A stretch of DNA of 35,321 nucleotides from Candidatus Komeilibacteria bacterium (GTDB lineage: Bacteria; Patescibacteriota; Patescibacteriia; UBA1558; S5-K13), in contig JAUVAE010000001.1 of NCBI GenBank assembly GCA_030591905.1, forward strand, positions 1 to 35,321, read 5' to 3'. Below are positions 11,978-12,783 of the stretch, piece after piece. Numbering within the stretch: the first letter of the stretch is position 1; the number at the start of each line of letters is the position of its first letter. Both the position numbers and the translations under genes were made by a program. Under the pieces are notes generated by a model. That model was not told the origin of the DNA. It made no database searches and saw nothing but the letters and a program-made list of their open reading frames with translations.

Positions 11978-12013
11978 GAATACGGAACATGGATTACGAA
12001 TTACGAATAATGG
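11978..12013. repeat. Left arm of an ACGAATTA-type inverted repeat enclosing the DUF559 cassette
   Basis: GAATACGGAACATGGATTACGAATTACGAATAATGG. ATGGATTACGAATTACGAATAAT (11990-12012) matches the reverse complement of 12757-12780 (ATGAATCACGAATTAAGAATTAAG) at about 18 of 23 positions. Confidence 0.6.
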
Positions 12014-12140
12014 TTATAGAAAAATTAAATATGAATTAATAGACAGGTAAGATATAAGAAAATGGTCGCATTATCTAATGGGGTTTTTTTGTTTTTTAGA
12101 ATTGATATTGAAATTAACCACCCCTTAAATACAAACCCCA

Positions 12141-12277
12141 CCCCCAACCCCTCCCCTAGCCAGGAGAGGGGAGCCAGAAAAATTAACGAGCATATAGTCC
12201 CCATCTCCTGCCTGTCCCAATTCAACCCCCTCTGTCGCTTTCGCGACATCTCCCCCTAGTCAGGAGGAGAAGTGGGA
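12141..12277. repeat. GC-rich hairpin doublet, copy D (nested/composite, same orientation as copy C)
   Basis: Hairpin 12148-12171 has arms CCCCTCCCC/GGAGAGGGG and loop TAGCCA. The spacer contains AACGAGCATATAG and matches the copy C spacer at 19 of 24 positions. The right half (12199-12276) contains CCTGCCTGTCCC (12207-12218), the mini-hairpin GTCGC-TTTC-GCGAC (12234-12247) and the hairpin TCTCCCCC-TAGTCA-GGAGGAGA (12249-12270). Confidence 0.8.
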
Positions 12278-12292
12278 TAAGAAGTAATTTAT

Positions 12293-12649
12293 ATGTTAAA
12301 CACTAAAGCAGTAATAAAAGCTAGAATATTGAGGAAAAGAATGACTGAGTCAGAGAAAATTCTTTGGCAAGAATTAAAAACTAAGAAATTGGGAGTTAAG
12401 TGTCGTAGACAGATGCCATTTGTTTTTGAAGATTATCATTTTATAGCTGACTTTTATTGTTCAGAAAAGAAATTAATTATAGAAGTAGACGGTAAAGTTC
12501 ATAATGATCAAGAAATAAAAGAATATGATGAATTTAGAGAAGATGTTTTTAAACAAGATGGTTATAAAATTATAAGATTTAAGAATAAAGAAATAATAAA
12601 TAATTTAGAAGAAGTTTTAATAAAAATAAAAAATATTGTAAATCAGTAA
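12293..12649 (+). CDS. DUF559 domain endonuclease (Vsr/PD-(D/E)xK-like fold)
   Basis: 118 aa. The DUF559 pattern is clear: 'ARILRKRMTESEKILWQELKTKKLGVKCRRQMPFVFEDYHFIADFYCSEKKLIIEVDGKVH...YDEFREDVFKQDGYKIIRFKNKEI'. Confidence 0.85.
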   Translation: MLNTKAVIKARILRKRMTESEKILWQELKTKKLGVKCRRQMPFVFEDYHFIADFYCSEKKLIIEVDGKVHNDQEIKEYDEFREDVFKQDGYKIIRFKNKEIINNLEEVLIKIKNIVNQ

Positions 12650-12656
12650 TAGTAAT

Positions 12657-12702
12657 CTTCCCTTTCTCCTGGCTAGGAGAGAGGGATAAGAGGGAGAGAG
12701 GT
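12657..12702. repeat. GC-rich hairpin, copy E (single unit, right-half type)
   Basis: Hairpin 12660-12685 has arms CCCTTTCTCC/GGAGAGAGGG (10 bp, one G-T pair) and loop TGGCTA. The end motif GGGAGAGAGGT at 12692-12702 is the same terminal motif as in copies A and B. Confidence 0.8.
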
Positions 12703-12733
12703 TAGTTAAATGGGCTAATCAAAAGTTCAAAAT

Positions 12734-12783
12734 CTTATTATTCTTACTTCTTGCTTCTTAATTCTTAATTCGTGATTCATATC
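12734..12783. repeat. Right arm of the ACGAATTA-type inverted repeat enclosing the DUF559 cassette
   Basis: CTTATTATTCTTACTTCTTGCTTCTTAATTCTTAATTCGTGATTCATATC is complementary (imperfectly) to 11978-12013. Confidence 0.6.

Follow-up and report, generated by a model that had tools for sequence, protein, structure and literature searches.

A DUF559 endonuclease gene bracketed by inverted triplex-type repeats as a possible selfish cassette in a Candidatus Komeilibacteria genome

In a 35,321-nt stretch of a Candidatus Komeilibacteria genome (contig JAUVAE010000001.1, positions 1 to 35,321; hereafter the window), a gene for a small DUF559 endonuclease lies between two GC-rich repeat modules, which are inverted around the gene with their third sequence blocks pointing outward. 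Gene and modules together (12219-12702) may constitute a selfish cassette, in which the nuclease and repeats of a triplex-motif class act as functional partners, resembling either the RAYT-REPIN pairs or homing endonucleases; we put the probability of this reading at roughly one half. DUF559 genes and such repeats are associated across genomes, the unit is portable, and at one orthologous site it is present, absent or replaced by another allele. Remnants of the gene occur next to repeats, whole units have inserted in frame into other genes, and both the gene and the module blocks are under purifying selection. A preliminary description of this DNA had proposed that DUF559 services or mobilises the hairpin repeats. 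All elements of the layout that it gave are present, 1-10 nt from where it had placed them, and its observation is confirmed, while its interpretation is partly supported by the evidence below.

The gene (12293-12649, plus strand) encodes a 118-aa protein of the DUF559 family (Vsr-like, EDxHD-type), matching Pfam PF04480 at E=1.1e-28 and 99.8 bits (cut-off 20.6). The profile spans residues 8-115, and no separate N-terminal DNA-binding domain was found. The solved DUF559 structure PDB 3HRL matches the protein in sequence at E=4e-13, and NCBIfam PRK09767 (YcjD) does so at E=7e-14, under its equivalog cut-off. In an alignment of 35 homologs D53, E64, D66, H70 and D79 are invariant; E64, D66, H70 and D79 (with D53) correspond to the Vsr/'EDxHD' catalytic residues on a Vsr-like fold. 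Relative to its closest relatives the gene has a dN/dS of 0.14-0.20, which indicates that it is functional and under purifying selection. It is also the sole recognisable nuclease gene among the window's open reading frames (ORFs), as had been claimed, in a window of about 27% G+C with Patescibacteria-like gene content and no transposase.

Both modules follow one plan, namely a pyrimidine (Py) block, a complementary purine (Pu) block and then another purine block, the mirror image of the preceding one; some copies represent the opposite strand. The downstream module, R (12657-12702, plus strand; scan match 12661-12700), which had been named hairpin E, consists of the Py block TCCCTTTCTCC (12659-12669), a first loop TGGCTA (12670-12675), the Pu block GGAGAGAGGGA (12676-12686), a second loop TAAG (12687-12690) and the mirror Pu block AGGGAGAGAGG (12691-12701), an exact mirror of the block at 12676-12686. 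The upstream module, L (12219-12284, minus strand), contains a Py block (12226-12233), a mini-hairpin (12234-12247), a further Py block (12249-12256), the loop TAGTCA and a Pu block (12263-12270) followed by AGTGGGATAAGAAG, and folds at -23.8 kcal/mol (z=-2.95). L ends 8 nt before the ATG and R begins 7 nt past the stop codon. The terminus of R, AGGGAGAGAGGT, does resemble the ends of the window's gene-less copies A (..AGAGAGAGGT) and B (..AGGGAGAGGT), another point on which the preliminary description was right. Further upstream, L is continued by the remainder of a composite repeat, D, which comprises a distal triplex-type module, a central spacer and then L itself. The distal module (12133-12173; scan match 12137-12171) reads as a triplex motif (TM) on the minus strand, with Py blocks at 12136-12145 and 12148-12156, the loop TAGCCA and a Pu block at 12163-12171, and is 88% identical to copy A at 293-333. 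The spacer (12174-12218) is of the type seen in copies B and C (AACGAGCATATAG), runs into a truncated hairpin arm and matches copy B at 3488-3535 in inverted orientation. The window contains the hairpin core CYCCTRRYYAGGAG 8 times, where 0.02 occurrences would be expected, and three of these sites lie no more than 150 nt from the DUF559 gene. A scan for the three blocks (Py, Pu, mirror Pu) recovered 6 motifs, compared to 0 in 20 shuffles, with the order (-)(+) at copy A, at copy B and around DUF559.

The arrangement Py/loop/Pu/loop/mirror-Pu is that of the BoxC/PIT/TM repeats (Bergler 1992; Hoyne and Maher 2000; PMC4666352), intrastrand-triplex motifs described from E. coli, Synechocystis, Haemophilus and more than 260 other genomes (Holder et al. 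2015, PMC4666352). The repeats of the window are thus not a new type of family; by architecture they belong to this known class, in a sequence family different from that of E. coli. The two also share a GC-rich, intergenic, multi-copy character, frequent inverted doublets, a distribution over many phyla and rearrangement-prone loci. However, the window blocks read TCCCTYTCTCC / GGAGAGRGGGA rather than the consensus of the E. coli motif TMECO, CCCTCNCCC N3-6 GGGNGAGGG N3 GGGNGAGGG, which has no match in the window, and the window loops carry extra mini-hairpins. The published repeats form inverted doublets at unstable loci with no associated transposase or integrase, and the text that describes them mentions no endonuclease, DUF559 or ycjD (PMC4666352). 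Whereas the literature gives the class no associated gene and explicitly no mobility function, the repeats of the window bracket a nuclease gene. Within the literature searched we found no paper linking DUF559 to these repeats.

Two simpler identities for the modules were set aside. Since no Rfam family matched (Rfam 15 gave no gathering-threshold match over the whole window and chance-level matches only in 11900-12900), a known structured RNA was dropped; the Rfam family Pedo-repair likewise had no match in the Pedobacter DUF559 loci. A plain terminator was dropped because the promoter/terminator scan found nothing above chance and no terminator-like site (GC hairpin plus T-run) in 11900-12900. 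PIT elements have been reported to lack terminator activity (PMC4666352).

The two closest homologs (L001 and L005; 84-89% identical) sit between giant DUF2341 genes, unlike the gene in the window, yet each has a window-type L upstream and a window-type R downstream. In a three-way alignment similarity starts exactly at AATTCAACCCCC (12219) and stops at GGGAGAGAGGT (12702), with nothing in common outside. These ~480 bp, comprising the gene and its two modules, therefore behave as one portable unit with L and R as its ends; in L209 and L208 the unit occurs in still other contexts. While the synonymous sites of the gene differ by 31% between the window and L001, all 57 of 57 block positions in L and R are identical, which argues that the blocks are constrained, including the 'third strand' block. 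In the R module every block position is identical in both L001 and L005; the loops and mini-hairpins of L and R vary between relatives. The ends of the unit show no target-site duplication in the window, L001 or L005, so the combination of terminal inverted repeats and target-site duplication that marks elements derived from insertion sequences (IS), such as miniature inverted-repeat transposable elements, is not present. Separately, a tiny GC palindrome, CCTGCCTGCCGG(T/C)AGGCAGG, is nested in L/R loops or mini-hairpins of several relatives. Its sites include L005 (~3969-3988), L209 (~1646-1667) and L010 (11 nt past the DUF559 stop codon), and it resembles an additional insertion element of still smaller size.

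The history of the locus can be read from relatives located by means of the 203-aa protein encoded upstream, whose flanking genes are 81-93% identical in nucleotide sequence to those of the window. Four states were found. The window carries its unit within a block (11978-12787) whose left end immediately follows the stop codon of the 203-aa gene and whose right end directly precedes TTTGGGAAAGCC. In L215 the site holds a DUF559 gene whose product is 36% identical to that of the window, with three hairpin modules upstream and none downstream. In L136 there is a recombinant stub: the first 18 nt of an L215-type gene run, with AATAATTTA as the junction, into the final ~45 nt of a window-type gene, followed by an R module. 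Finally, in L216, L217 and L218 the site is empty, with a 64-65 nt spacer in which the stop codon is followed by CTTTGGAAAGCC. A comparison with relatives for such empty sites had been proposed, and here the whole ~0.8-kb block is missing; the entire interval 11978-~12787 is thus an insertion. An initial reading of the upstream module in L136 as an inverted window L module was rejected, as L215 shows it to be the upstream module of a different DUF559 allele.

Two very different alleles at one site could also arise if DUF559 were an ordinary free-standing homing endonuclease gene, with older, independent, structure-prone triplex repeats that it neither makes nor moves serving as its preferred target or homology. 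This would fit the facts that repeats far outnumber genes, that E. coli genomes without the DUF559 gene ycjD retain their TMs (PMC4666352) and that the two hairpins beside some genes are copies in direct, not inverted, orientation. But the empty orthologous sites hold no repeat at all, which implies that the modules came with the block rather than before it, and neither the spread of the repeats themselves nor the DUF559 stubs on gene-less copies would be explained. We therefore regard such a use of pre-existing landing sites as unlikely.

If nuclease and repeats are partners in a cassette, as we favor, their association should extend beyond this locus. A scan of one genome per species, using a DUF559 profile built from 14 closer sequences, yielded 80 DUF559 loci. 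The 82-locus set analyzed comprises the window, L001, L005 and the loci of the genome scan, from Patescibacteria, Bacteroidota, Chloroflexota, Synechococcus, Peribacteria and others; the sampled loci represent the short, stand-alone DUF559 subfamily nearest the window protein. Hairpins were defined by a stem of at least 8 bp with at most 1 mismatch, a GC fraction of at least 0.6 and a 5' arm of at least 85% pyrimidine. At least one such hairpin flanks 55 of the 82 DUF559 genes (67%) and 20 of 699 neighbouring genes (3%; odds ratio 69, p=9e-47). Both flanks carry hairpins at 29/82 DUF559 genes and at 2/699 neighbours (odds ratio 191). Viewed from the hairpins, 96 of the 164 Py/Pu GC hairpins fall in the 2.4% of sequence that adjoins DUF559, a 58-fold enrichment (binomial p ~1e-110), and relative to non-ORF DNA alone their density beside DUF559 is still 17-fold higher. 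The third block is directed away from the gene in 27 cases versus 8 upstream and in 16 versus 3 downstream. The association is thus widespread, as the preliminary description had surmised from the odd extensions of DUF559 proteins. These extensions are real and occur at both ends: database DUF559 proteins bear Pro/Gly/Ser/Glu-rich N- and C-terminal tails (for example SPSPD, PLPALGEGQGWG and PPPLSWERGTGGGEA), which are translated hairpins. In addition, a 14-fold enrichment of DUF559 proteins among the predicted targets of inversion has been reported (PMC9881135), as would suit genes lying between inverted repeats.

In the reverse direction, a metagenome scan with the hairpin core alone yielded 120 loci, about 15 of which have DUF559 within a few hundred bases. 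When the adjacent ORFs of the 120 loci were clustered without bias, DUF559 was the only family to recur in many independent contexts (14 loci, median identity 58%), and no transposase family was recurrent. Elsewhere in bacteria HUH transposases do move hairpin-ended repeats (REP/RAYT, IS200/IS605). An enzyme of this kind encoded elsewhere, such as an IS200/IS605-type or RAYT transposase, could conceivably move the repeats, with their pile-up beside DUF559 having unrelated reasons. We find this hardly credible, given the lack of a recurrent transposase family at the 120 hairpin loci and of any transposase in the window. A mere pile-up would also not orient the repeats consistently outward at both flanks of the gene, and no transposase lies near the E. 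coli TMs either (PMC4666352).

Most copies of the repeats have no gene, and the window holds three such doublets. Copy A (293-440) consists of a minus module (296-331), a 64-nt AT-rich spacer and a plus module (394-439), and ends 10 nt before the next ATG (450). Copy B (3461-3573), a palindromic doublet of a minus and a plus module that folds at -58 kcal/mol (z=-5.8), fills its spacer from 2 nt past a stop codon (3458) to 12 nt before an ATG (3586). Copy C (6357-6493), folding at -64.9 kcal/mol (z=-5.9), is the B element in reverse orientation with a small insertion, and ends 10 nt before an ATG (6504). B and C have the ends ACCTCTCCC...GGGAGAGGT. We considered whether copy A is the window unit minus its gene; the modules agree, but the AT-richness and shortness of the 64-nt spacer prevent a decision, and the identification was not kept. 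DUF559 3' stubs joined to R/TM modules were found in L136, L209 and E. coli ycjD, three lineages that are independent of one another. In L209 and in E. coli K-12 an intact gene is followed by a duplicated DUF559 3' end on a second R/TM module. Tandem repeat doublets with a period of ~129 nt in L112 (1-300, minus strand) contain in their spacer ATGACATGTA, which corresponds to the opening 10 nt of a DUF559 gene of P0017 type; L094 has an intact gene of this type (123-500). The stubs show that gene-less copies either derive from copies with a gene or trade sequence with such copies. Together with the (-)(+) arrangement shared by A, B and the unit, they make the RAYT-REPIN comparison of the preliminary description apt as a working description.

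The positions of these elements relative to genes are also regular. The outer purine block GGGAGAGGT lies 3-13 nt before the next ATG in copies A (431-452), B (3564-3588) and C (6487-6506), and in L001 (6400-6416) and L005 (4420-4436); B-type elements start 0-14 nt past the preceding stop codon. The element would thus replace the entire intergenic spacer and could supply a ribosome-binding site. The modules might accordingly be cis-acting RNA or DNA parts that limit expression of the nuclease, insulate against read-through and re-supply the ribosome-binding site of the next gene, the gene-less copies being decay products. The purine block ahead of downstream ATGs would be expected on this account, as would the start codon of ycjD, which is buried in a 16-bp hairpin, and the upstream regulatory hairpins of free-standing Vsr-like homing endonuclease genes (PMC2677866). 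Decay alone, however, would not produce the gene-less B-like doublets that recur nearly unchanged at many unrelated loci (among them L196, L203 and L207). Hairpins are retained even where they are translated in frame inside LeuRS, and the mirror symmetry of the third block has no obvious role in RNA, given that purine-motif triplexes do not form in RNA (PMC4666352). That the modules are accessories of this sort and nothing more is, in our estimate, distinctly unlikely.

At about 24 of the 82 loci a hairpin-DUF559-hairpin unit is open in frame within a larger housekeeping gene, with the hairpins at the junctions. The hosts are leucyl-tRNA synthetase (LeuRS, at two sites), the MetH activation domain (L041, L077, L082), an IcmF-like mutase (L042), PriA (L069, L070), TsaB/D-like proteins (L079, L027, L023) and a type IIG restriction-modification enzyme (L062). 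At further loci the open frame of the unit continues into the gene that follows, encoding HisF (L030), TrpF (L087), GuaA (L056) or a GHMP kinase (L065, L028). LeuRS site 1, between ...VVFKV and IEVFTTRPDT, is common to twelve Flavobacteriia (L078 9038-12751, L083, L025, L047, L084, L088, L057, L045, L058, L074, L051, L039), and site 2 is found in a Cytophagales genome (L049 8210-11593), so that each LeuRS type provides a near-empty control for the site of the other. In a Flavobacterium the LeuRS insert measures roughly 190 aa. Immediately ahead of KMSKS, the Flavobacteriia LeuRS with a unit carries a further in-frame doublet of hairpins that has no gene. Continuity of the frame across both junctions implies that the insert is translated rather than spliced. 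The window copy is intergenic with empty alleles in relatives, and homologs sit in frame in LeuRS, MetH and PriA with no intron or intein. The in-frame units explain why DUF559 proteins of ~118-132 aa carry source names such as 'leucyl-tRNA synthetase', 'cyclase' and 'HisF'. Two further observations were made in host genes. The Cytophagales LeuRS (L049) contains an apparent degraded remnant (FKNLE...PPSGGG) at site 1, and a TsaD gene in L168 (1571-2689, minus strand) contains an in-frame TPRPLLARRGGARGRG, a translated Py/Pu hairpin, with no DUF559.

E. coli provides a case in which the published TM repeats and a DUF559 gene meet. In K-12 the DUF559 gene ycjD (1351407-1351760, minus strand; L214, NC_000913.3, 1351204-1351830) ends in ...RRSPSP and a stop codon within a degenerate triplex motif, and is followed by the duplicated 3' stub and then, 165 nt from ycjD, by TMECO #9 (1351239-1351204, same strand), one of just 18 TM loci in 4.6 Mb. 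This copy beside ycjD is a further likeness between the window repeats and the BoxC/PIT/TM class. A perfect 16-bp hairpin covers the Shine-Dalgarno sequence and GTG start of ycjD. The gene is single-copy and was found in 3378 of 5426 complete E. coli genomes. In strains that lack it, the region diverges from a point just past TMECO #9; the junction in the uropathogenic strain (UPEC) 536 gave no clean empty site. BoxC was reportedly first noticed at this same envM/fabI locus.

That co-location is functional or regulatory rather than selfish is an explanation to which we give little credence. DUF559 would then be a housekeeping Vsr-like repair nuclease, acting on Py/Pu DNA that has stalled or mispaired as a triplex or hairpin. 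Its Vsr-like fold and the purifying selection on the gene are compatible with such a role, TM motifs do stall polymerases in vitro (PMC4666352), and in Caulobacter the DUF559 protein VsrA induces the SOS response if the methylase paired with it is absent (PMC12907096). Yet close relatives differ in whether they have the gene, two alleles only 36% identical occupy one site, insertions sit in frame within essential genes at varying sites, and 38% of E. coli genomes do without it. The Vsr very-short-patch repair endonuclease itself shares the fold superfamily, and nicking chemistry would be expected of both. However, the Pfam Vsr model has no match to the window protein (DUF559, MTES_1575 and DUF2726 alone match), and no cytosine methyltransferase is found among the window ORFs, adjacent to the gene or otherwise. 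Neither the Vsr profile nor linkage to a Dcm-type methyltransferase thus places the protein among the Vsr repair enzymes, and the patchy, insertion-like distribution of DUF559 is a poor fit to a repair gene.

Among known mobile systems, the cassette that we propose has three near counterparts. It shares with RAYT-REPIN one or a few enzyme genes between inverted hairpin repeats, many gene-less intergenic inverted doublets and mostly stable chromosomal positions; both flanking inverted copies and dispersed gene-less doublets were found here. It differs in that the enzyme is a PD-(D/E)xK Vsr-like nuclease in place of a HUH Y1 (IS200/IS605-like) transposase, which was not found in the window, in that Py/Pu three-block motifs take the place of REP, and in that DUF559 units also occur in frame within genes. 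The Vsr-like EDxHD proteins include a proven homing endonuclease, I-Bth0305I (PMC3239194), and free-standing EDxHD endonucleases break up host genes and have hairpins upstream of them (PMC3239194, PMC2677866). DUF559 units are like these in their catalytic fold, their E/D/H/D residues, insertion into housekeeping genes, upstream hairpins and presence/absence polymorphism. But those proteins are larger and multidomain (PMC3239194), some with NUMOD DNA-binding motifs (PMC2677866), and reside mainly in phage introns or between split-intein halves, whereas the window protein has 118 aa, is chromosomal and intergenic (with relatives fused in frame without intein or intron) and is tied to dispersed repeats. 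A third comparison is to the Rickettsia palindromic elements (RPE), which like DUF559 units are palindromic repeats found both between genes and in frame, and which, unlike them, have no known enzyme gene and are not Py/Pu triplex motifs. The RPE, described by Ogata and colleagues in 2000, reportedly insert in frame even in essential genes and are translated.

How might such a cassette spread? We propose that the nuclease would recognise the Py/Pu hairpin or duplex of the modules and nick or cut at or near it. Repair of the break would use a different copy as template, for which the modules, 35-60 bp long, would act as portable arms of homology, and the template would decide the outcome: gain of the gene by a doublet, loss of the gene leaving a stub, or replacement of one DUF559 allele by another. 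Insertions would be rendered harmless by the modules, through their lack of terminator activity and through in-frame read-through, and the outer purine block GGGAGAGGT might give the next gene a Shine-Dalgarno-like sequence 3-13 nt before its ATG. One gene-bearing copy could in this way coexist with several gene-less doublets, such as A, B and C in the window. DUF559 is then the first candidate partner enzyme for the BoxC/triplex-motif repeats. A broader extrapolation, which is possible but which we hold only tentatively, is that DUF559 is the long-missing partner enzyme of BoxC/PIT/TM repeats throughout bacteria. It would represent a second, independent RAYT-REPIN-like symbiosis, in which a Vsr-type nuclease recognises the Py/Pu hairpin or triplex, spreads by break-induced copying, explains the instability of TM loci and lodges in frame in essential genes with no intron or intein.

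Several results weigh against a partnership of this kind. Nuclease activity, action on the modules and the driving of copying are all inferred for the protein; triplex formation has been seen in vitro with TMECO oligonucleotides only (PMC4666352). PD-(D/E)xK nucleases cut but perform no strand transfer, so mobility must use host repair. The preliminary description had asked whether every DUF559 gene is flanked by hairpins; most are, but 27 of the 82 loci have no hairpin by the criteria of the set, the L215 allele has modules only upstream, and no DUF559 lies within 500 nt of ~85% of the hairpin sites. Flanking hairpins are inverted copies of each other in 19 of the 29 two-sided cases, which weakens a claim of terminal inverted repeats to one of outward polarity of the third block. 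Identical DUF559 proteins were looked for in several contexts, and those compared (P0008 and P0104) had one context each, suggesting that activity, if any, is rare. The repeats also occur without the gene, strong as the association is: ycjD is absent from 38% of complete E. coli genomes and TM positions are mostly conserved among strains (PMC4666352). TMs thus persist without ycjD, which argues against ongoing mobility or recent spread in E. coli. TM number showed no clear difference between ycjD-positive and ycjD-negative strains, as judged from places per record rather than a proper count.

The BoxC/PIT/TM repeats have been known since the 1990s in hundreds of genomes and destabilise their loci, yet neither their function nor their origin has been established, nor has a gene for their mobility been identified (PMC4666352). 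DUF559, for its part, is a very large family with no assigned biological role. If the partnership is real, it would explain both puzzles together across phyla, add a nuclease-based counterpart to RAYT-REPIN and define a class of endonuclease insertions that sit in frame in essential genes such as those for LeuRS, MetH and PriA without splicing. For annotation, it accounts for the odd Pro/Ser/Gly/Glu-rich extensions of DUF559 proteins and for misnamed 118-aa entries. E. coli K-12, with ycjD and 23 TMECO copies, together with natural ycjD-negative strains, is well suited to direct testing.

The preliminary description had placed the gene and its repeats inside an outer long inverted repeat of IVS type. 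Its arms exist, as tracts of heptamers on the left (ATGGATT ACGAATT ACGAATA AT, 11989-12011, plus strand) and on the right (ATTCTTA CTTCTTG CTTCTTA ATTCTTA ATTCGTG ATTCAT, 12740-12780, minus strand), and are complementary at 17 of 20 positions. Heptamers of the ACGAATT type (at most 2 mismatches) occur in just three places in the window, and equally good AT-rich inverted pairs are common around the locus. The left arm was found in the window and L136 only and the right arm in the window only; both are absent in L215 and at the empty sites of L216, L217 and L218, and the right arm is absent in L136. The outer repeat is thus neither conserved in relatives nor the boundary of the unit.

The genes around the unit yielded a few further observations. 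A 23S-rRNA-IVS-protein (four-helix-bundle) gene at 10960-11361 is a presence/absence insertion too: L215 has the gene, and 4 nt separate the asparaginase-like gene from the 203-aa gene in L216, L217 and L218, where no IVS-protein gene intervenes. Another palindromic family, with arms CCCTGTTAAAT...ATTTAACAGGG, is found at 8508-8600, upstream of an IVS-protein gene, and a related copy of ~50 nt splits the DUF559 gene in L157 (~1560-1610). A second IVS-protein gene (8720-9094) has inverted heptamer-like (A/C)CAAAT(T/A) tracts on its flanks (8671-8719 and 9094-9146), and a similar heptamer hairpin (ACGGATT AAGAATT AAGAATT ACGGAA / TTCCGTTATTCGT) lies at 28653-28704, between convergent genes ending at 28648 and 28720.

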